NCBI RefSeq assembly: GCF_011045215.1
Contig: NZ_CP049201.1
Length of the DNA: 64,000 nt
Direction: 5' to 3' (one strand)
Source of the DNA: Escherichia coli
Lineage (GTDB): Bacteria > Pseudomonadota > Gammaproteobacteria > Enterobacterales > Enterobacteriaceae
Part shown: piece by piece, positions 3 through 58,237 of the stretch
Layout of the letters: every line of letters begins with the position of its first letter
How positions within the stretch are numbered: position 1 is the first letter of the stretch
Notes under the pieces: model-generated
Databases searched by the model: none
Told to the model about the DNA's origin: nothing
The model's input: the letters and a program-made list of their open reading frames with translations, nothing else
Position numbers and translations under genes: made by a program

Positions 3-539
3 GTGATGAACGACACCGTACTGGACGGTCGCGATGTCACTAAAACCAACACCACCGACGTAGCGACCTTCAAGTCTGTTAACTACGGTCCTCTGGGTTA
101 CATTCACAACGGTAAGATTGACTACCAACGTACCCCGGCACGTAAGCACACCAGCGACACACCGTTCGATGTCTCTAAGCTGAATGAACTGCCGAAAGTC
201 GGCATTGTTTATAACTACGCTAACGCATCCGATCTTCCGGCTAAAGCACTGGTAGATGCGGGCTATGATGGCATCGTGAGCGCTGGTGTGGGTAACGGCA
301 ACCTGTATAAATCCGTGTTTGACACGCTGGCGACCGCCGCGAAAAACGGTACTGCAGTCGTGCGTTCTTCCCGCGTACCGACGGGCGCTACCACTCAGGA
401 TGCCGAAGTGGATGATGCGAAATACGGCTTCGTCGCCTCTGGCACGCTGAACCCGCAAAAAGCGCGCGTTCTGCTGCAACTGGCTCTGACGCAAACCAAA
501 GATCCGCAGCAGATCCAGCAGATCTTCAATCAGTACTAA
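3..539 (+). CDS. ansB: L-asparaginase II, C-terminal portion (5' end outside window)
   Basis: ORF-track translation matches the periplasmic asparaginase C-terminus (..GTLNPQKARVLLQLALTQTKDPQQIQQIFNQY); runs off the window start. Confidence 0.88.
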   Translation: MMNDTVLDGRDVTKTNTTDVATFKSVNYGPLGYIHNGKIDYQRTPARKHTSDTPFDVSKLNELPKVGIVYNYANASDLPAKALVDAGYDGIVSAGVGNGNLYKSVFDTLATAAKNGTAVVRSSRVPTGATTQDAEVDDAKYGFVASGTLNPQKARVLLQLALTQTKDPQQIQQIFNQY

Positions 540-546
540 TCACCTC

Positions 547-575
547 GCCCCGGTATCGTGCCGGGGCTTATTCAC
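547..575 (+). terminator. Putative rho-independent terminator of ansB
   Basis: GC hairpin gccccgg-tatcgtg-ccggggc followed by T-rich stretch immediately after ansB stop. Confidence 0.5.
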
Positions 576-655
576 TTCAGACTCACGTCCATTGCCAATT
601 GTGATTATGCTAATGATAATCACTGGAGTAAATTATTCCGCGTGAGGGTGTTCCG

Positions 656-1663
656 GTGAAAAAGCAATGGATTGTAGGCACTGCGCTGTTTGTGTTGATG
701 TCTGGTAATGTCTGGGCAGGTGGCGAACCGCCAACTGAAAATATCTTAAAAGATCAATTCAAAAAGCAGTATCACGGCATTCTCAAGCTTGATGCCATCA
801 CCTTAAAAAACCTTGATGCGAAAGGTAATCAGGCCACCTGGTCAGCAGAAGGCGATGTTTCTTCCAGCGATGATCTCTATACCTGGGTCGGTCAGTTGGC
901 AGATTACGAACTGCTGGAACAGACCTGGACGAAAGATAAACCGGTAAAATTCTCGGCGATGTTAACCAGTAAAGGAACGCCCGCGTCTGGCTGGACGGTG
1001 AACTTTTACTCTTTTCAGGCGGCAGCCAGCGATCGTGGTCGGGTGGTCGACGATATCAAAACGAATAATAAATACCTGATCGTGAATAGCGAAGATTTCA
1101 ATTATCGTTTTAGTCAGCTTGAGTCAGCGTTGAATACCCAGAAGAACTCGATTCCTGCGCTGGAGAAGGAAGTGAAAGAGCTTGATAAGAAAATGGCAGC
1201 GGCGCAGAAAGCAGCGGATGCATATTGGGGAAAAGATGCAAACGGCAAGCAAATGACCCGCGAAGACGCCTTTAAAAAAATTCACCAACAGCGTGATGAG
1301 TTTAATAAACAGAACGATAGCGAGGCGTTCGCGGTTAAATATGACAAAGAGGTTTATCAACCGGCGATTGCGGCATGTCATAAACAGAGTGAAGAGTGTT
1401 ATGAAGTGCCGATTCAGCAGAAACGAGATTTCGATATCAACGAACAACGGCGACAGACTTTTCTGCAATCACAAAAACTTAGCCGTAAATTGCAGGATGA
1501 CTGGGTAACGCTCGAAAAAGGGCAATATCCGTTAACGATGAAAGTTTCAGAAATAAACAGTAAAAAAGTCGCGATTTTGATGAAAATTGACGATATCAAC
1601 CAGGCTAATGAACGCTGGAAAAAAGATACCGAACAACTGCGGCGCAATGGGGTGATTAAGTAA
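656..1663 (+). CDS. yggM: Secreted protein of unknown function, YggM-like (GTG start, signal peptide)
   Basis: 335-aa ORF with N-terminal signal peptide (MKKQWIVGTALFVLMSGNVWAG); length and N-terminus match my recollection of YggM; adjacent to ansB. Confidence 0.75.
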   Translation: MKKQWIVGTALFVLMSGNVWAGGEPPTENILKDQFKKQYHGILKLDAITLKNLDAKGNQATWSAEGDVSSSDDLYTWVGQLADYELLEQTWTKDKPVKFSAMLTSKGTPASGWTVNFYSFQAAASDRGRVVDDIKTNNKYLIVNSEDFNYRFSQLESALNTQKNSIPALEKEVKELDKKMAAAQKAADAYWGKDANGKQMTREDAFKKIHQQRDEFNKQNDSEAFAVKYDKEVYQPAIAACHKQSEECYEVPIQQKRDFDINEQRRQTFLQSQKLSRKLQDDWVTLEKGQYPLTMKVSEINSKKVAILMKIDDINQANERWKKDTEQLRRNGVIK

Positions 1664-1678
1664 CTCATGTTAAGTGCC

Positions 1679-1720
1679 TTTGCCGGATAATATAAAAAGT
1701 TATCCGGCAAATTATTTTTC
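1679..1720 (+). terminator. Putative terminator after yggM
   Basis: Hairpin tgccggataa-N10-ttatccggca followed by aattattttt. Confidence 0.5.
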
Positions 1721-3020
1721 ACATTAGCCCTAGTAGCTGTGGAATGAACAAGGATATTTGCGGAATGTAAGTGATCATCATCAACGCTACTAGCAATGCA
1801 GCATAAAATGGCAGCAATGGTTTGATTAAATGTTGAATCTTCACACCCGAGATAGAACAACCAACAAATAACGCACTACCCACCGGCGGTGTTAACAGCC
1901 CAATACAAAGGTTGGCCACCATCATAATACCGAAATGTACAGGGTCCATTCCCAGCTCTTGTGCAATCGGCAAGAAGATCGGTGTAAAGATTAGTACAGC
2001 CGGTGTCATGTCCATAAAGATGCCGACAATTAATAAGACGATATTAATCAGCAGCAATATGATCAGTGGGTTATCAGAAATCCTCATCAATGCGTCGCTG
2101 ATCATATAAGGAATATCAGCATTGGTCATTGCCCAGGACATGCCCACGGAAAAACCGATCAACAGTAATACAATCGAAGTGGTAACAACCGATTCCAGAA
2201 TCAGTTTGGGTAAATCGCGCCATTTCACTTCCCGGTAAATCAGCACCGAGAGAATAAATGTGTAGACAACGGCAATTGCTGACGCTTCAGTTGCGGTAAA
2301 AATGCCGCCCAGAATGCCGCCCATCACAATGAACACCAGAAGCAAACTTGGTAGGGCATCCAGAAACGCTTTACAGGCCTGAGCAAAGGTTGCTCTATCT
2401 GAAAGTGGGTAACCACGGCGTTTAGCAATAATGGCGCAGACAACCATTACCGCGAGCCCCATTAAGATCCCTGGCAAATATCCGGCCATAAATAGCGATG
2501 CTACGGAAACGCCGCCAGCGGTCAGGGAAAACACAATTAACACGTTTGAGGGCGGTATCAGTAATCCAGTAATACAGGATGAGACGTTTACAGCGGTAGA
2601 AAATGCCGGATCATAACCTTCTTTGGTCTGAATGGGATTAAGTGTGCCACCAACGGCAGCAGCTGCCGCAACGGCTGAACCAGAAATGGAACCAAACATC
2701 ATATTCGCCAGGACGTTCACATGACCAAGCGAACCAGGAACGCGGCCAACCATTACCTGGGCGAGGTTAATCAAACGTATCGCAATACCGCCGCTGTTCA
2801 TCAGCGTTCCGGCAAAGATGAAAAAGGGGATTGCCAACAGGGCAAAGTTATCCAGTCCATTAGCCAGTCGTTGCGAAACAGTGATTGCCGCGATATCCCA
2901 GGGAAACATCAAAAGCAATGAAGCTACAGTGGCAATACCGATTGAGAACGAAATGGGCACACCAATAAAGACCAGCACAAAAAAACAGCCAAACAGTGTA
3001 ATCGCGATATAACTATCCAT
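1719..3020 (-). CDS. TRAP transporter large permease subunit (DctM family)
   Basis: 433-aa highly hydrophobic multi-TM protein; tightly coupled to the DctQ-like and DctP-like genes upstream on the same strand; family assignment from sequence character and operon context, no HMM run. Confidence 0.8.
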   Translation of the reverse strand: MDSYIAITLFGCFFVLVFIGVPISFSIGIATVASLLLMFPWDIAAITVSQRLANGLDNFALLAIPFFIFAGTLMNSGGIAIRLINLAQVMVGRVPGSLGHVNVLANMMFGSISGSAVAAAAAVGGTLNPIQTKEGYDPAFSTAVNVSSCITGLLIPPSNVLIVFSLTAGGVSVASLFMAGYLPGILMGLAVMVVCAIIAKRRGYPLSDRATFAQACKAFLDALPSLLLVFIVMGGILGGIFTATEASAIAVVYTFILSVLIYREVKWRDLPKLILESVVTTSIVLLLIGFSVGMSWAMTNADIPYMISDALMRISDNPLIILLLINIVLLIVGIFMDMTPAVLIFTPIFLPIAQELGMDPVHFGIMMVANLCIGLLTPPVGSALFVGCSISGVKIQHLIKPLLPFYAALLVALMMITYIPQISLFIPQLLGLM

Positions 3021-3532
3021 TAACTGGCCTCCTGCTCAGGTTGTTTCAGTTGTTGAATGCTTTGGTTAATAAAACACAAGGCATAAAACATCATCACCAC
3101 TCCACTTAATGGCAGAATGATATATACGTATCCCATCGGTATTTGCATAGCGGCAGATACCTGAGATGTTGCCAGTGTTTTATCAATTAACTTCAGGCCA
3201 CCAGTCACAATGACCGAACCGGCAAAACCTAAAATGAGAACGTTAATGACTATACTAAGAAGTAATTGCTTGCGTTTATTCAAGGCGAGAGCAAATAAAT
3301 CAATAGAGAGATGTCGCTGCGCGCCGACGGTATATGCAGCACCTAATAATCCTACCCAGATCATCAAAAAGCGTGCCAGCTCATCGGTTAATGTACTTGG
3401 CTGGTTAAGTACGTAGCGGCTAAATACTTGCCAGACTACGCATACAACCAGAGCAAGCATGACGGCGACAGAAAACGCGGCAATGACGCGGTCTACCGCA
3501 AGTTTCAGGCGGTTAAATATCATTGTAAGCAT
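3020..3532 (-). CDS. TRAP transporter small permease subunit (DctQ family)
   Basis: 170-aa 4-TM-like protein between SBP and large permease; start/stop overlap with the DctM-like gene. Confidence 0.75.
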   Translation of the reverse strand: MLTMIFNRLKLAVDRVIAAFSVAVMLALVVCVVWQVFSRYVLNQPSTLTDELARFLMIWVGLLGAAYTVGAQRHLSIDLFALALNKRKQLLLSIVINVLILGFAGSVIVTGGLKLIDKTLATSQVSAAMQIPMGYVYIILPLSGVVMMFYALCFINQSIQQLKQPEQEAS

Positions 3533-4554: not shown

Positions 4555-4840
4555 AAAAAAACTCCCTGTTGAAGGATGGAAATTGGTTGATATCTAATTG
4601 TGCTTATCAGTGCTTTGTGCGACAAATTGGTTAACCTGTCTGACAACTTGTCTATGTTTATCACAACTTGAAATAAAGTCAGGAATTAAATATTAATTTT
4701 GTGCGCCAGGTTGTACATATTTATAATCAATGAATGATTAGTAAATATTCACTAAATATATATAATAAATGTCGTCGATATTTATTCAGTAAGAAATATA
4801 TTTCTGCCGAGGTTAATTAACGGGGGGGATAAAAGAAGTG
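4555..4840 (-). promoter_or_regulatory. AT-rich upstream region of the TRAP operon (promoter and possible regulator/H-NS sites)
   Basis: ~290 bp strongly AT-rich non-coding DNA directly upstream of the DctP-like gene; no ORF of convincing size. Confidence 0.4.
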
Positions 4841-4866
4841 ATTAATGCGCCCGCAGGCGCATTAAT
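4841..4866 (-). terminator. Perfect 11-bp inverted repeat at hemW 3' end (probable hemW terminator)
   Basis: attaatgcgcc-cgca-ggcgcattaat, 2 nt downstream of hemW stop; RC strand continues cacttctttt. Confidence 0.45.
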
Positions 4867-4868
4867 GA

Positions 4869-6005
4869 TTACTCAGCGAGGAATAATTCAAGAAGTGAGT
4901 TTAAGAATAATTTACCATGTTCCGTTATCTGCCAGTAATCCGCACATTCGGTGAGATAACCCTGAGCGATAGCTTCGTCTAACTGTGGGCGAATCACTGC
5001 TTCAGAAAGGCCAGTATACTGACTAAACTCCACGCGCGGCGCAGGTTCCAGCAACCGGAAGCGATTCATAAAGAACTCAAACGGCTTATCTGCGGCTTCT
5101 ACATCACGCTGGCTTTCCAGATACCTTCCTTGCATAAAACCACGCGGATGGCGCGTTTTGGTGGTACGCAGAATGCGCCCATCCGGGAAGGTCACTTTGC
5201 CGTGTGCGCCGCAGCCAATACCGATGTAGTCACCAAAGCGCCAGTAGTTGAGATTGTGCTGGCACTGATAACCGGGTTTGGCGTAAGCGGAGGTTTCATA
5301 TTGCTGATAACCCGCTGCGGTTAATAACTGATGCCCCTGTTCGAATATATCCCACAACGCGTCATCGTCCGGCAGTACAGGAGGGCGCGAGCCAAACAGC
5401 GTATTAGGTTCGATGGTCAGTTGATACCAGGAAAGATGCGGCGGATTCAGTTCAATGGCCTGGCGTAGATCGCCAAGTGCCTCTTCCAGTGATTGATCCG
5501 GCAACCCATGCATCAAATCAAGGTTAAAGCTACGTAACCCTAAACCGCTCGCCAGCTTTGCCGCTCGTTTCGCTTCTTGCGGGCCATGAATACGCCCAAG
5601 TCGTTTCAGCTTTTCTTCGCTAAAACTCTGCACACCAATAGAGATGCGGTTCACACCAGCACGCTGATAATCGACAAAGCGATCGGCTTCTACCGTTCCA
5701 GGGTTCGCTTCCATAGTAATTTCTGCATCCGCTGCCAGCGGCAAACGCGCACGCACGCCGTCCAGCAGCGTTTGCATCGCCGGGCCGGAAAGCAGGCTCG
5801 GCGTACCACCGCCAATAAAGATTGTCTTTACTTCACGGCCCTGAGCGTAAGCCACATCGTTGTCCAGATCGTTAAGCAGATGCTGAACATAATCGTCGTG
5901 CGGCACTTCTCCTTTCAACGCGTGAGAGTTGAAATCGCAGTACGGGCATTTCTGCACGCACCACGGGATGTGAATGTAGAGACTCAGCGGCGGTAATTTA
6001 ACCAT
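4869..6005 (-). CDS. hemW: Radical SAM heme chaperone HemW (YggW)
   Basis: 378 aa; CxxxCxxC radical-SAM motif ([12 protein letters not shown]); conserved position next to rdgB. Confidence 0.9.
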
Positions 6006-22646: not shown

Positions 22647-24638
22647 ATGTCCTCACGTAAAGAGCTTGCCAATGCTATTCGTGCGCTGAGCATGGACGCA
22701 GTACAGAAAGCCAAATCCGGTCACCCGGGTGCCCCTATGGGTATGGCTGACATTGCCGAAGTCCTGTGGCGTGATTTCCTGAAACATAACCCGCAGAATC
22801 CGTCCTGGGCTGACCGTGACCGCTTCGTGCTGTCCAACGGCCACGGCTCCATGCTGATCTACAGCCTGCTGCACCTCACCGGTTACGATCTGCCGATGGA
22901 AGAACTGAAAAACTTCCGTCAGCTGCACTCTAAAACTCCGGGCCACCCGGAAGTGGGTTACACCGCTGGTGTGGAAACCACCACCGGTCCGCTGGGGCAG
23001 GGTATTGCCAACGCAGTAGGTATGGCGATTGCAGAAAAAACGCTGGCGGCGCAGTTTAACCGTCCGGGCCACGACATTGTCGACCACTACACCTACGCCT
23101 TCATGGGCGACGGCTGCATGATGGAAGGCATCTCCCACGAAGTTTGCTCTTTGGCGGGTACGCTGAAGCTGGGTAAACTGATTGCGTTCTACGATGACAA
23201 CGGTATCTCTATTGATGGTCACGTTGAAGGCTGGTTCACCGACGACACCGCAATGCGTTTCGAAGCTTACGGCTGGCACGTTATTCGCGACATCGACGGC
23301 CATGACGCGGCATCTATCAAACGCGCAGTTGAAGAAGCGCGCGCAGTGACTGACAAACCGTCCCTGCTGATGTGCAAAACCATCATCGGTTTCGGTTCCC
23401 CGAACAAAGCCGATACCCACGACTCCCACGGTGCGCCGCTGGGCGACGCTGAAATTGCCCTGACCCGCGAACAGCTGGGCTGGAAATACGCGCCGTTCGA
23501 AATCCCGTCTGAAATCTATGCTCAGTGGGATGCGAAAGAAGCAGGCCAGGCGAAAGAATCTGCATGGAATGAGAAGTTTGCGGCTTACGCGAAAGCTTAT
23601 CCGCAGGAAGCAGCTGAATTTACCCGCCGTATGAAAGGCGAAATGCCGTCTGACTTCGACGCCAAAGCGAAAGAGTTTATCGCTAAACTGCAGGCTAATC
23701 CGGCGAAAATCGCCAGCCGTAAAGCGTCGCAGAATGCTATCGAAGCGTTCGGCCCGCTGTTGCCGGAATTCCTCGGCGGCTCCGCTGACCTGGCACCGTC
23801 TAACCTGACCCTGTGGTCTGGTTCTAAAGCAATCAACGAAGATGCTGCGGGTAACTACATCCACTACGGTGTTCGCGAGTTCGGTATGACCGCGATTGCT
23901 AACGGTATCTCCCTGCACGGTGGCTTCCTGCCGTACACCTCCACCTTCCTGATGTTTGTCGAATACGCACGTAACGCCGTACGTATGGCTGCGCTGATGA
24001 AACAGCGTCAGGTGATGGTTTACACCCACGACTCCATCGGTCTGGGCGAAGACGGCCCGACTCACCAGCCGGTTGAGCAGGTCGCTTCTCTGCGCGTGAC
24101 CCCGAACATGTCTACATGGCGTCCGTGTGACCAGGTTGAATCCGCGGTCGCGTGGAAATACGGTGTTGAGCGTCAGGACGGTCCGACCGCGCTTATCCTC
24201 TCCCGTCAGAACCTGGCGCAGCAGGAACGTACTGAAGAGCAACTGGCAAACATCGCGCGCGGTGGTTATGTGCTGAAAGACTGTGCTGGTCAGCCGGAAC
24301 TGATCTTCATCGCCACCGGTTCTGAAGTTGAACTGGCGGTTGCTGCCTACGAAAAACTGACTGCCGAAGGCGTGAAAGCGCGTGTGGTGTCCATGCCGTC
24401 TACCGACGCATTTGACAAGCAGGATGCGGCTTACCGTGAATCCGTACTGCCGAAAGCGGTTACTGCACGCGTTGCTGTAGAAGCGGGTATTGCTGACTAC
24501 TGGTACAAGTATGTTGGCCTGAACGGTGCTATCGTCGGTATGACCACCTTCGGTGAATCTGCTCCGGCAGAGCAACTCTTTGAAGAGTTCGGCTTCACCG
24601 TTGACAACGTTGTTGCGAAAGCAAAAGAACTGCTGTAA
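22647..24638 (+). CDS. tktA: Transketolase 1
   Basis: Start at [41 protein letters not shown] (663 aa). Confidence 0.95.
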
Positions 24639-24654
24639 TTAGCATTTTGGGTAA

Positions 24655-24681
24655 AAAGGTCGCTTCGGCGACCTTTTTTAT
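24655..24681 (+). terminator. tktA rho-independent terminator
   Basis: aaaggtcgc-ttcg-gcgaccttt followed by ttttatt. Confidence 0.6.
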
Positions 24682-24951
24682 TACCTTGACATGTCCGTTT
24701 TCGGACGAGCAATAGATAAAGCGTGTTGTAGATCACAAATATTTATATGCAATAAATATCAATTATGTAATATGCATCACGATATGCGTGTTGACATTTG
24801 TTGTTATATCTATAACTCAATGTTATATAAGAAATTAATAATTCACTGTTTTCAAAACACCGGTTTCCCTGCTCAATTGCTTTCATTAAACCGCACGAGT
24901 ATTTTATTTTTACCGCCGGACGGTACCCTAAAAATAAAATAAGGATAATTT

Positions 24952-25395
24952 ATGCGGCTTAGTGATTATTTTCCAGAATCATCAATCTCAGTTATACATT
25001 CAGCAAAAGATTGGCAGGAAGCTATCGATTTCTCGATGGTATCATTGCTGGATAAAAACTATATCAGCGAGAATTACATTCAGGCAATTAAAGATTCCAC
25101 CATTAACAATGGCCCTTATTATATTCTCGCACCAGGCGTGGCAATGCCTCATGCGCGACCGGAATGTGGGGCGCTTAAAACCGGGATGTCTTTGACATTA
25201 CTTAAACAAGGCGTTTATTTCCCGGGGGATGACGAACCGATTAAATTACTCATCGGACTTTCTGCTGCCGATGCCGATTCGCACATTGGCGCTATTCAGG
25301 CGTTAAGTGAATTACTGTGCGAAGAAGAAATACTCGAACAACTCTTAATAGCATCATCAGAAAAACAATTAGCGGACATTATCAGCCGCGGATAA
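24952..25395 (+). CDS. cmtB: PTS mannitol-type EIIA component (cryptic)
   Basis: 147 aa; EIIA(Mtl)-family size and conserved His region (GVAMPHARPE); precedes the EIICB gene. Confidence 0.8.
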   Translation: MRLSDYFPESSISVIHSAKDWQEAIDFSMVSLLDKNYISENYIQAIKDSTINNGPYYILAPGVAMPHARPECGALKTGMSLTLLKQGVYFPGDDEPIKLLIGLSAADADSHIGAIQALSELLCEEEILEQLLIASSEKQLADIISRG

Positions 25396-25422
25396 TTACT
25401 CTCTCCTCTACAGGATAATATT

Positions 25423-26811
25423 ATGGAAAACAAGTCTGCTCGTGCAAAGGTCCAGGCTTTTGGGGGCTTTTTGACTGCAATGGTCATCCCCAATATTGGT
25501 GCTTTTATTGCCTGGGGTTTTATTACTGCGTTATTTATTCCCACCGGTTGGCTGCCTAACGAACATTTCGCCAAAATTGTCGGCCCGATGATTACCTATT
25601 TATTGCCCGTGATGATTGGTTCTACCGGTGGTCATCTGGTCGGCGGTAAACGCGGCGCGGTTATGGGCGGAATAGGTACTATTGGTGTGATCGTCGGCGC
25701 AGAGATCCCGATGTTCCTTGGCTCAATGATTATGGGGCCGCTCGGTGGGCTGGTCATAAAATATGTCGATAAGGCACTGGAAAAACGCATACCTGCTGGT
25801 TTTGAGATGGTTATCAATAACTTCTCATTAGGTATCGCGGGGATGCTCCTTTGTCTGCTGGGTTTTGAAGTGATCGGCCCGGCGGTGTTAATTGCCAATA
25901 CTTTCGTCAAAGAGTGTATTGAGGCGCTGGTACATGCGGGTTATCTGCCTCTGCTGTCAGTCATCAATGAACCGGCGAAAGTGCTTTTCCTTAATAATGC
26001 GATCGATCAGGGCGTCTATTATCCGCTGGGAATGCAACAGGCTTCGGTTAACGGTAAATCCATCTTCTTTATGGTGGCCTCTAACCCAGGTCCGGGCCTG
26101 GGGCTGCTGCTGGCGTTTACCTTGTTTGGTAAAGGGATGAGTAAACGTTCTGCGCCCGGGGCGATGATTATTCACTTCCTCGGTGGGATCCACGAACTGT
26201 ATTTCCCATATGTGCTGATGAAGCCGCTGACTATTATTGCCATGATTGCGGGCGGTATGTCTGGCACCTAGATGTTTAACTTACTGGACGGTGGTCTGGT
26301 GGCTGGCCCAAGTCCGGGGTCTATCTTTGCTTACCTGGCGCTGACGCCGAAAGGTTCGTTCCTGGCGACAATTGCCGGTGTTACGGTAGGTACCCTGGTG
26401 TCCTTTGCTATCACTTCGCTGATACTGAAGATGGAAAAAACGGTGGAAACGGAGAGCGAAGATGAGTTTGCTCAGTCAGCCAATGCGGTTAAGGCGATGA
26501 AACAAGAGGGTGCATTCTCGTTAAGCAGGGTTAAGCGTATCGCCTTTGTTTGCGATGCGGGGATGGGCTCCAGTGCGATGGGCGCGACCACCTTCCGTAA
26601 ACGCCTGGAAAAAGCGGGGCTGGCAATTGAAGTAAAACATTACGCCATAGAAAACGTGCCTGCGGATGCGGATATCGTCGTTACTCATGCCAGTCTGGAA
26701 GGGCGCGTGAAACGTGTGACGGATAAACCACTGATATTGATTAATAACTATATTGGCGATCCAAAACTCGACACTTTATTTAATCAATTAACCGCCGAAC
26801 ATAAACACTGA
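25423..26811 (+). pseudogene. cmtA: PTS mannitol-type EIICB component, interrupted by in-frame amber codon
   Basis: ORFs 25423..26271 (282 aa) and 26272..26811 (179 aa) are contiguous in one frame, separated only by TAG at 26269..26271; combined length equals a 462-codon EIICB gene. Confidence 0.7.
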
Positions 26812-26825
26812 TTACAGAGGTAAAA

Positions 26826-28103
26826 ATGAAAACCAAAGTTGCTGCTATTTATGGCAAGCGGGATGTCCGTCTGCGCGAATTTGAACTGCCAGAAATTACC
26901 GATAATGAATTACTGGTGAGTGTGATTTCTGACAGCGTCTGTTTATCCACCTGGAAAGCGGCGTTACTCGGTAGTGAACATAAACGCGTACCCGACGATT
27001 TAGAAAATCATCCGGTCATTACCGGGCATGAATGTGCTGGGGTTATTGTCGAAGTGGGTAAAAATCTCACTGGCAAATATAAAAAAGGCCAGCGTTTTGT
27101 ATTGCAACCGGCGATGGGGTTACCAAGCGGATATTCAGCGGGCTACAGCTACGAATATTTTGGCGGCAATGCCACTTATATGATTATTCCCGAAATCGCC
27201 ATTAATTTGGGCTGCGTATTACCGTATCACGGCTCTTATTTTGCTGCGGCGTCGCTGGCAGAGCCTATGTGCTGCATTATTGGTGCTTATCATGCCAATT
27301 ATCACACCACGCAATATGTTTATGAGCATCGCATGGGCGTCAAACCTGGCGGCAATATTGCACTGCTGGCGTGTGCAGGTCCGATGGGCATTGGCGCTAT
27401 CGATTACGCCATTAACGGCGGCATACAACCGTCGCGGGTGGTGGTGGTCGATATCGACGACAAACGTCTGGCGCAGGTACAGAAGCTGCTGCCGGTGGAA
27501 CTGGCGGCCAGTAAAGGCATTGAGCTGGTGTATGTGAATACCAAAGGGATGAGCGATCCTGTCCAGATGCTGCGGGCGCTGACAGGAGATGCCGGGTTCG
27601 ATGACATTTTTGTTTATGCGGCGGTGCCTGCTGTCGTTGAGATGGCTGATGAATTACTGGCGGAAGATGGCTGTCTGAACTTCTTTGCCGGGCCGACGGA
27701 TAAAAACTTCAAAGTGCCGTTTAATTTCTACAACGTTCATTACAACAGCACGCACGTCGTCGGTACATCCGGCGGTTCAACGGACGACATGAAAGAGGCA
27801 ATTGCCCTTAGCGCCACTGGGCAGTTACAGCCGTCGTTTATGGTGACCCATATCGGTGGCCTGGATGCGGTGCCAGAAACCGTGCTCAATCTGCCGGATA
27901 TCCCTGGCGGTAAAAAACTCATTTATAACGGCGTGACCATGCCGCTCACTGCCATTGCCGATTTTGCCGAAAAAGGCAAAACCGAACCGCTGTTTAAAGA
28001 GTTGGCGCGGCTGGTTGAGGAAACGCACGGCATCTGGAATGAACAGGCCGAGAAATATCTGCTGGCACAATTTGGCGTTGATATCGGGGAGGCCGCGCAA
28101 TGA
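26826..28103 (+). CDS. yggP: Zn-dependent medium-chain dehydrogenase/reductase, YggP-like
   Basis: 425 aa; MDR zinc-site Cys/His (GHECAG) and Rossmann glycine motif (CAGPMGIGA). Confidence 0.8.
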   Translation: MKTKVAAIYGKRDVRLREFELPEITDNELLVSVISDSVCLSTWKAALLGSEHKRVPDDLENHPVITGHECAGVIVEVGKNLTGKYKKGQRFVLQPAMGLPSGYSAGYSYEYFGGNATYMIIPEIAINLGCVLPYHGSYFAAASLAEPMCCIIGAYHANYHTTQYVYEHRMGVKPGGNIALLACAGPMGIGAIDYAINGGIQPSRVVVVDIDDKRLAQVQKLLPVELAASKGIELVYVNTKGMSDPVQMLRALTGDAGFDDIFVYAAVPAVVEMADELLAEDGCLNFFAGPTDKNFKVPFNFYNVHYNSTHVVGTSGGSTDDMKEAIALSATGQLQPSFMVTHIGGLDAVPETVLNLPDIPGGKKLIYNGVTMPLTAIADFAEKGKTEPLFKELARLVEETHGIWNEQAEKYLLAQFGVDIGEAAQ

Positions 28104-56779: not shown

Positions 56780-57120
56780 TAAACTAATTTCACCTCCGTT
56801 TTCGCATTATATTTTCTAATGCCATGATTTTTTGATTTAGTGTTTTTTGACATTTTTTTAGCTCTTAATATTGTCTTATTCAAATTAACTTTCTCATTAC
56901 ATCATCTTTGTATAGAAACTGGTGTATTTTTTGGTTTTTTATTCTGTCGCGATTTTTGCATTTTTTAACCATAAGCTAATGTGATGATCAATTTTACCTT
57001 ATGGTTAACAGTCTGTTTCGGTGGTAAGTTCAGGCAAAAGAGAACGATTGCGTTGGGGACCGGGAGTGGCTCCGATGCTGGGTTTCGTGGTGATAATTTC
57101 ACCATGAAAAGTTGTCAGCC
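56780..57120 (+). promoter_or_regulatory. gcvTHP promoter/regulatory region
   Basis: ~340 bp AT-rich upstream region with ctaat/attag-type half sites typical of GcvA-regulated promoters; individual sites not resolved. Confidence 0.45.
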
Positions 57121-57142
57121 CCGCTTATTCAATGAGGACAAG

Positions 57143-58237
57143 ATGGCACAACAGACTCCTTTGTACGAACAACACACGCTTTGCGGCGCTCGCATGGTGG
57201 ATTTCCACGGCTGGATGATGCCGTTGCATTACGGTTCGCAAATCGACGAACATCATGCGGTACGTACCGATGCCGGAATGTTTGATGTGTCGCATATGAC
57301 CATCGTCGATCTCCGCGGCAGCCGCACCCGGGAGTTTCTGCGTTATCTGCTGGCGAACGATGTGGCGAAGCTCACCAAAAGCGGCAAAGCCCTTTACTCG
57401 GGGATGTTGAATGCCTCTGGCGGTGTGATAGATGATCTCATCGTCTACTACTTTACTGAAGATTTCTTCCGCCTCGTTGTTAACTCCGCCACCCGCGAAA
57501 AAGACCTCTCCTGGATTACCCAACACGCTGAACCTTTCGGCATCGAAATTACCGTTCGTGATGACCTTTCCATGATCGCCGTACAAGGGCCGAATGCGCA
57601 GGCTAAAGCTGCCACACTGTTTAATGACGCCCAGCGTCAGGCGGTGGAAGGGATGAAACCGTTCTTTGGCGTGCAGGCGGGCGATCTGTTTATTGCCACC
57701 ACTGGTTATACCGGTGAAGCGGGCTACGAAATTGCGCTGCCCAATGAAAAAGCGGCGGATTTCTGGCGCGCGCTGGTGGAAGCGGGCGTTAAGCCATGCG
57801 GCCTGGGCGCGCGTGACACGCTGCGTCTGGAAGCGGGTATGAATCTTTATAGTCAGGAGATGGACGAAACCATCTCTCCTTTAGCCGCCAATATGGGCTG
57901 GACTATCGCCTGGGAACCGGCAGATCGTGACTTCATCGGTCGTGAAGCTCTGGAAGCGCAGCGTGAACATGGCACAGAAAAACTGGTTGGTCTGGTGATG
58001 ACCGAAAAAGGCGTGCTGCGTAATGAACTGCCGGTACGTTTTACCGATGCGCAGGGCAACCAGCATGAAGGCATTATCACCAGCGGGACTTTCTCCCCGA
58101 CGCTGGGTTACAGCATTGCGCTGGCGCGCGTGCCGGAAGGTATTGGTGAAACAGCGATTGTGCAAATTCGCAACCGTGAAATGCCGGTTAAAGTGACGAA
58201 ACCTGTTTTTGTGCGTAACGGCAAAGCCGTCGCGTGA
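57143..58237 (+). CDS. gcvT: Glycine cleavage system T protein (aminomethyltransferase)
   Basis: Start at [33 protein letters not shown] (364 aa). Confidence 0.95.

Follow-up and report, generated by a model that had tools for sequence, protein, structure and literature searches.

The 313-bp spacer between tktA and cmtB is, in all likelihood, a compact and ancient region which combines the terminator of tktA with a catabolite-controlled promoter of the cmtBA-yggPFDC operon, activated by CRP from two sites. The spacer was studied within a window of 64,000 nucleotides of Escherichia coli DNA (the whole stretch analysed), where the gene order is speA-speB-loiP-tktA-cmtB-cmtA-yggP-yggF-yggD-yggC as in an E. 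coli-type chromosome segment. It covers positions 24639-24951, between the tktA stop codon (TAA, 24636-24638) and the cmtB ATG at 24952, which makes exact the ~ 310 bp given in an earlier note on this DNA. According to the model proposed here, the first ~ 40 bp form the Rho-independent terminator of tktA and the remaining ~ 270 bp the catabolite-controlled promoter region of cmtBA-yggPFDC. cAMP-CRP binds the published site 1 and very probably also, 44 bp downstream, a putative site 2 (Table 1), and this activation leaves the operon low on glucose and raises it on poor carbon sources, nucleosides included. The core promoter would be either a proximal one, starting near 24912, or a distal one, the start of which would fall near 24815-24836. 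With the former, the two CRP sites would stand at a constant 126 bp (12 helical turns) 5' of the promoter and work via bent AT-rich DNA and/or a partner protein; with the latter, site 2 would occupy a class I position. The AT-richness of the spacer would then reflect dense AT-rich signals held at fixed spacing, and not a foreign origin.

Table 1. Position in the window of the features discussed in the text
Feature	Position	Strand	Description
Intrinsic (Rho-independent) tktA terminator	24653-24679	+	A5-GGTCGC-TTCG-GCGACC-T6
Small second hairpin	24692-24707	+	GUCCG-UUUU-CGGAC; fold -10 kcal/mol, z = -2.7
CRP site 1	24722-24737		CGTGTTGTAGATCACA; experimentally bound (ETEC ChIP-seq, K-12 SELEX)
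CRP-like site 2	24766-24781		TGTAATATGCATCACG; predicted, 12.2 bits, position conserved
Central motifs	24790-24822		GTTG(ACA) 24790-24796, AAC 24814-24816, TG 24821-24822; near-invariant columns in alignment A1
Candidate distal promoter	24801-24829	+	TTGTTA-17-(TG)n-TATATA; PWM score 5.6; start near 24836
Proximal promoter-like block	24877-24912	+	-35 TTGCTT 24877-24882, 17 bp, -10 TATTTT 24900-24905; position-conserved, sigma-70-like
Imperfect palindrome	24900-24941		TATTTTATTTTTA (24900-24912) / TAAAAATAAAATA (24929-24941); variable 16-nt centre
Shine-Dalgarno	24941-24945	+	AAGGA, 6 nt 5' of the cmtB ATG; AAGGA or GAGAG in orthologues
Amber codon in cmtA	26269-26271	+	TAG at codon 283, truncates cmtA; TGG in strain 88-3493

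With 32.9% GC the spacer lies well below the 64-kb window (51.4%) and the local coding sequence (52.4%). Sliding windows of 313 bp with a GC content as low as this represent 0.75% of the total and fall at 4 places, all of them long regulatory intergenic regions 5' of a gene: a TRAP transporter substrate-binding-protein gene (the spacer beside hemW), galP, cmtB and gcvT. The three other equally AT-rich stretches are found at 4587-4898 (TRAP/hemW), 14998-15433 (galP) and about 56887-57175 (gcvT), and galP is a known CRP target which is also present among the CRP ChIP sites listed by Haycocks et al. 2015 (PMC4287617). When the 36 intergenic regions of 50 bp or more in the 64-kb neighbourhood are ranked by GC content (mean 44%), the cmtB spacer comes fifth lowest, in a near-tie with another local spacer of 312 bp and 32.7% GC. 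The spacer is AT-rich even among intergenic DNA, yet it is not unique; of the earlier description as "extremely AT-rich" the low GC content stands and the adverb is overstated. The multiple TATA-like stretches mentioned with it are present as well, TATA occurring 5 times, but dinucleotide shuffles give 3.8 +/- 1.7, a count no higher than base composition predicts, and TATAAT has no occurrence in the 313 bp. The AT-rich tract as a whole measures ~ 0.5 kb (24644-25150) and extends into cmtB, the GC content of which is 42.6%.

The spacer of K-12 differs from that of the window at 6 of 313 positions, with no difference inside a named site. Given that all six fall outside the elements discussed here, results obtained with K-12 can be transferred to the window spacer. 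In the RefSeq record of MG1655 no feature is annotated between tktA and cmtB (b2934), where the spacer corresponds to 3,079,331-3,079,643.

CmtB was searched in one genome per species, giving 32 loci, and 21 orthologous tkt-cmtB spacers were aligned (alignment A1). tkt is directly followed by cmtB in Citrobacter, Salmonella arizonae/diarizonae, Raoultella, Silvania, Lelliottia, Superficieibacter, Huaxiibacter and others, the synteny being found in about 10 enterobacterial genera, and the orthologous spacers measure 302-347 bp with 29-39% GC. Judging from this comparison, spacer length and AT-richness are ancestral and maintained; since both are conserved across genera, they mark a constrained regulatory region and not foreign DNA. 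The conserved footprint of alignment A1 consists of the terminator, CRP site 1, site 2, the central motifs and a near-invariant block from 24877 to the start codon.

The tktA terminator named in the earlier note is confirmed inside the spacer, 15 nt after the tktA stop codon. Its stem pairs 24658-24663 with 24668-24673 around the TTCG loop, the six T residues follow at 24674-24679, and the RNA fold reaches -19.1 kcal/mol (z = -5.1), a stability attained by 0 of 200 shuffles. Each of the 21 orthologues has a hairpin with a T-run at the matching place, and changes occur in both arms of the stem. A simple promoter/terminator scan missed this real terminator, and an Rfam scan of 23500-26000 returned as sole hit a chance match to rsmX (E = 0.52) lying over it. 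The small second hairpin is specific to the short type of E. coli spacer, to which the window belongs, and is not kept in other genera; it is probably without function.

Regarding the promoter function of the spacer, the sequence CGTGTTGTAGATCACA of site 1 is the reverse complement of TGTGATCTACAACACG, a site which CRP ChIP-seq of ETEC H10407 attributed to cmtB with a fold above threshold (FAT) of 16 (Haycocks et al. 2015, PMC4287617). Among the entries of that table considered here, this value is the fifth highest, after yibI, mtlA, ppiA/tsgA and fdoG. The same 16-mer was given for the cmtBA-yggPFDC/tktA spacer in a genomic SELEX of K-12 using CRP in vitro, and in the same study the activity of a lacZ fusion of the cmt fragment falls in a crp mutant of K-12 (Shimada et al. 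2011, PMC3105977). The primers of this fusion map to 24532-24951 of the window, so that the whole spacer was included. Furthermore, a PcmtA-gfp reporter is CRP-dependent, with its lowest activity on glucose and its highest on uridine, about 14-fold apart, and deletion of cmtA raises the tobramycin MIC in both MG1655 and BW25113 (Sci Adv 2025, PMC12412646). In EHEC, cmtB has been reported to be up 2-3-fold in bovine gut contents versus M9-glucose. The published CRP site and the CRP-dependent fusions over the spacer bear out the earlier assignment of this DNA as the cmt promoter region. The published reporter and ChIP work was done in K-12 and ETEC strains, from which the window strain differs by the amber codon in cmtA and, relative to the K-12 spacer, by the 6 SNPs.

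In order to score CRP sites, a matrix was built from 98 other ChIP sites (training median 14.1 bits, 10th percentile 10.2). Site 1 scores 14.0 bits, which is about the median of real sites, and site 2 follows with the score given in Table 1; these are the top two hits in the spacer, and by matrix score both match the CRP consensus TGTGA-N6-TCACA. Site 1 is found at one alignment column in 21 of 21 orthologues and is identical in K-12, and site 2 is conserved in position in 19 of 21. On the basis of this conservation and score, cAMP-CRP very probably binds the second site too. The K-12 and ETEC papers concern this very locus, with its 16-bp CRP site and a reporter fragment covering the spacer, but they name one CRP site only and do not give site 2, the 44/126-bp geometry, the proximal block or a mapped start. 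Hence, CRP site 1 and the CRP control of cmtB are already published, while site 2 and its geometry are new here.

The paralogous mannitol PTS operon of E. coli, mtlADR, is likewise controlled by CRP through several sites, one of which, TGTGATCTACAGCATG, resembles the cmt site TGTGATCTACAACACG. Its upstream region differs in that it is not notably AT-rich and shares with cmt no other alignable motif and no palindrome; indeed, an operator common to the cmt spacer and the mtlA control region was considered and none was seen on comparison. The mtl operon has a dedicated repressor, MtlR, and the cmt operon has the MtlR-like YggD, for which ChIP-exo detected no binding to DNA and whose present annotation is fumarase E.

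Sites 1 and 2 are 44 bp apart in 21 of 21 orthologues. Measured from the centre of site 2, TATTTT follows after 126 bp in 18 of 21; one orthologue has 127 bp, and the two Superficieibacter spacers (L029 and L033) have 114-115 bp. From TATTTT to the ATG, by contrast, the distance varies between 46 and 67 bp. The Superficieibacter value is due to a deletion of 11-12 bp, about one helical turn, at columns 206-216 of alignment A1; across the 21 orthologues, no other indel of notable size occurs from the CRP pair to the proximal block. After such a deletion the CRP pair would still be in the same rotational phase relative to the proximal block. Considering that indels are otherwise lacking, although the sequence between the anchors is near-saturated with substitutions, the geometry appears to be constrained.

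The low expression of the operon could also have its origin in H-NS, which would polymerise over both the AT-rich spacer and the first part of cmtB and silence the promoter, making the operon "cryptic". Silencing by H-NS had been proposed in the earlier note; AT-richness is the sole argument for it, and we regard it as unlikely. H-NS generally prefers AT-rich DNA; the spacer has 32.9% GC over its 313 bp and belongs to a ~ 0.5-kb AT-rich tract running into cmtB, and the cmt operon is poorly expressed on glucose. However, this tract is short and the rest of the operon is at normal GC, the cmt operon genes having 43-56%. The binding prediction that the earlier note had proposed as a check likewise fails to favour silencing: the nucleation motif TCGATAAATT has 0 matches within 2 mismatches on either strand of the spacer, where shuffles give 1.2 and the window averages 1.1 per kb. 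The region is moreover syntenic and constrained in length and geometry across genera. Of the xenogeneic features, the locus shows the AT-richness but no compositionally foreign, recent gene block.

The published data point in the same direction. The strong in vivo CRP peak listed for ETEC (FAT 16) argues for accessible DNA, and the reporter activity, the inducibility, the cmtA-deletion phenotype and the induction in gut contents reported in the literature indicate that the cmt promoter is not silent. This regulated reporter activity and these phenotypes come close to the robust wild-type expression that the earlier note had itself named as speaking against silencing. Among the papers covered by a full-text literature search, none linked H-NS to cmtB. 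The cmt operon shares with bgl, a cryptic operon silenced by H-NS, an AT-rich upstream region, the "cryptic" label and a dependence on CRP, but unlike bgl its promoter is measurably active and inducible, its region is conserved and syntenic, and it has no nucleation motif. H-NS therefore has only a small chance of being the main cause of the low cmt expression, although its occupancy could coexist with CRP control. Catabolite repression, together with the absence of a known specific inducer, explains the "cryptic" behaviour at least as well as H-NS.

Turning to the core promoter of the catabolite-controlled region, a simple promoter scan found no strong sigma-70 promoter on the + strand, and the sigma-70 matrix gives modest values in the spacer, about 5.6-5.9 bits at best. 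TTGACA-16-TAACTC ranks first among the sigma-70-like signals of the window spacer, but its -10 is not conserved. The proximal block is the only sigma-70-like signal which holds its position across genera: at a single alignment column, it is among the five best in 18 of 21 orthologues. Its -35 reads TTGCTT or TTGATT in the orthologues, and its invariant columns are TTG.TTT and CG.GTATTTT.TTTT.A. The predicted start is the invariant A at 24912, 7 nt after the -10, leaving a leader of 40 nt; counted from this start, the centres of the CRP sites would be at about -138 (site 2) and -182 (site 1), which are not classic class I/II positions. A start at the proximal block, taken together with the AT-rich DNA, the central motifs and the phase-preserving deletion, would thus call for bending, looping or a partner protein.

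With the distal candidate the sites would instead be centred at about -62.5 (site 2) and -106.5 (site 1). This geometry may fit a class I CRP promoter, which we state with low confidence, and the distal -10 hexamer TATATA is not conserved in other genera in alignment A1. A class II placement of site 2 was also considered: in 7 genera, -10-like hexamers lie 17 bp after TCACA, which would put CRP at -37.5, but they are absent from the window and this placement was rejected. Between the CRP pair and the proximal block, the central motifs read together as the repeats GTTG...CAAC...TTG, with TTG 24791-24793, A 24814 and TG 24821-24822 as invariant positions (columns T153 T154 G155, A176 A177 and T183 G184 of alignment A1). 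They are a candidate operator or a candidate piece of the distal promoter. No conserved match to the IHF consensus WATCAANNNNTTR was found in the spacer.

A more specific form of the long-range arrangement can be formulated from these elements. The two CRP dimers, 44 bp apart and 126 bp (12 helical turns) 5' of a weak, near-invariant core promoter, would constitute an activating module of fixed geometry that works only with a CytR-like nucleoside-responsive partner or a DNA-bending factor at GTTG...CAAC...TTG. We consider this quite unlikely. If it were true, the "cryptic mannitol" operon would turn out to be catabolic and responsive to nucleosides or uridine, its CRP control having an unusual long-range architecture.

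A related possibility is that the tandem CRP sites form a nucleoside-responsive complex of the CytR type, in which the repressor would contact both CRP dimers and nucleosides would release it. The fixed 44-bp spacing of the two sites is consistent with such a complex. So is the nucleoside induction of PcmtA-gfp, where uridine is the strongest inducer and is followed by inosine, guanosine, cytidine and adenosine (Sci Adv 2025, PMC12412646). In the orthologous spacers TGCAA/TTGCA occurs 46 times versus 14.4 expected, being three times commoner, but most of this excess comes from one conserved column, the left half of CRP site 2. In addition, the window holds a single, non-conserved TGCAA between the CRP sites, and the 28 bp separating the two sites are without a conserved octamer pair in the orthologues. 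The promoters of ppiA, udp, nupC, cdd and deoC belong to the known CytR regulon. In support of the CytR reading, these five are also among the CRP ChIP sites listed by Haycocks et al. (PMC4287617). Against it, 14 sugar-transporter promoters respond to uridine (Sci Adv 2025, PMC12412646), which fits a general rise of cAMP-CRP. None of the papers covered by the literature search links CytR to cmtB, and the paper reporting the uridine response (PMC12412646) does not mention CytR.

Like deoP2, udp, cdd and nupG, which are tandem-CRP promoters belonging to the CytR regulon, the cmt promoter has two CRP sites a few helical turns apart, and it shares with this regulon catabolite control and nucleoside induction. 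Known members have a CRP spacing of roughly 33 or 50-53 bp. The 44 bp of cmt differ from these values, there is no conserved pair of CytR half-sites between its CRP sites and neither of its CRP sites is known to lie at -40.5. Altogether, a CytR-type complex at cmt is improbable, and two-site activation by cAMP-CRP is the reading that we retain.

The last part of the spacer contains the imperfect palindrome, with arms of 13 nt, the left one far more conserved than the right. Before the ribosome-binding site, such a structure could be a leader RNA hairpin acting as an attenuator or in translational control, and its 13-nt inverted arms with a small inner GC stem do adjoin the Shine-Dalgarno sequence. 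Nevertheless, its RNA fold is no more stable than shuffled sequence (z = -0.09), the covariation does not exceed what shuffling gives (107/500), the inner stem pairs in only 50-75% of cells, RNAalifold gives 0 pairs on the orthologous palindrome and Rfam has no match for a leader hairpin. The right arm is moreover shortened in several genera while the left one is invariant. These results make an RNA hairpin very unlikely. Since the right arm erodes and the left one does not, a DNA signal is favoured over an RNA stem, and the palindrome would fit a promoter/leader DNA signal of the -10/start region, possibly an operator.

The tktA-cmtB spacer is dimorphic in E. coli. Among 5426 complete genomes, 3568 carry the short type seen in the window and 1817 have, between tkt and cmtB, a 909-nt gene of the prohibitin/SPFH family that lies on the other strand, and a terminator that differs. 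This insertion (for example locus L002, 2749-4000) is shared by E. albertii, E. whittamii and two further lineages of Escherichia, and none was found among the other genera compared. Positions 24702-24873 of the window (-250 to -79 from the cmtB ATG) are ~ 50% identical to the SPFH-type E. coli allele, a divergence equal to the distance to Citrobacter or Salmonella; the last 78 bp of the spacer and the flanking genes are 96-100% identical between the two types, and the SPFH-type allele of E. coli clusters with that of E. whittamii at 85%. This divergence, with its sharp breakpoint at about 24873/24874, would correspond to a very old or an imported allele. Site 1 is present in every spacer carrying the insertion, site 2 is kept at -186 from the ATG in SPFH-type Escherichia, and both types of allele have the CRP sites at -230 and -186.

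This dimorphism raises the question of whether loss of the SPFH/prohibitin gene by deletion left the spacer of the window behind as a scar, its composition being without function. About a third of the E. coli genomes do have the gene at this place, and 24680-24873 of the window is only distantly alignable to the AT-rich part of the SPFH-type allele. The short arrangement, however, with a homologous terminator and the same geometry, is that of all the non-Escherichia genera, which points to it as the ancestral one, and the SPFH-type alleles retain both CRP sites at the same distances from the ATG, so that a scar is hardly credible. Just as little can be said for a small protein encoded by the 83-codon ATG ORF at 24691-24942 (+): it fills nearly the whole spacer, ending 9 nt before cmtB, and its enclosing 95-codon open frame exceeds 99.45% of shuffles in 33%-GC DNA (P about 0.006), but the frame is closed in every other genus compared (longest there 40-73 codons), 3 of the 4 K-12/window differences inside it are non-synonymous as the frame is read here, no such ORF is annotated in MG1655 and it overlaps all the regulatory elements of the spacer.

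Downstream of the promoter, the amber codon that the earlier note had reported in cmtA is confirmed as a TGG to TAG change relative to strain 88-3493, the spacer of which is identical to that of the window, and the ORF list accordingly shows cmtA split into 282 + 179 aa. When 24639-26811 was compared with the complete RefSeq E. coli genomes, no 100% match was found and the best reached 99.6%. Since no complete genome is identical over the spacer and cmtBA, the amber codon would be private to this strain or lineage; the strain, absent from that complete set, may belong to a lineage that is Shigella-like or otherwise rich in pseudogenes. It breaks the operon and its transporter here, whatever the promoter does. 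In E. coli GDSC2227PM (L003, 4358-6575), an IS1A element has taken away cmtB and cmtA together with the 5' portion of yggP and has also truncated the SPFH gene; this event is another, independent route to the loss of the cmt operon. Other regulatory signals have been described within the operon body, namely a sigma-54 binding site inside yggP (about 26826-28103) oriented towards yggF (Bonocora 2015), as well as Nac peaks inside cmtA and yggP in a published ChIP-seq map, with opposite expression changes on Nac induction.

The second CRP site, the proximal block and the fixed distances add useful detail but do not amount to a new kind of element. For biology at large little changes, apart from the correction of the unsupported label of an H-NS-silenced cryptic promoter to that of a CRP-activated, inducible one. 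The cmt operon has recently been implicated in aminoglycoside uptake and its potentiation by uridine, and for that work the present results have a modest value, as the second CRP site, the proximal block, the central motifs and the 44/126-bp spacing may point to the start site and to the factor behind nucleoside induction.
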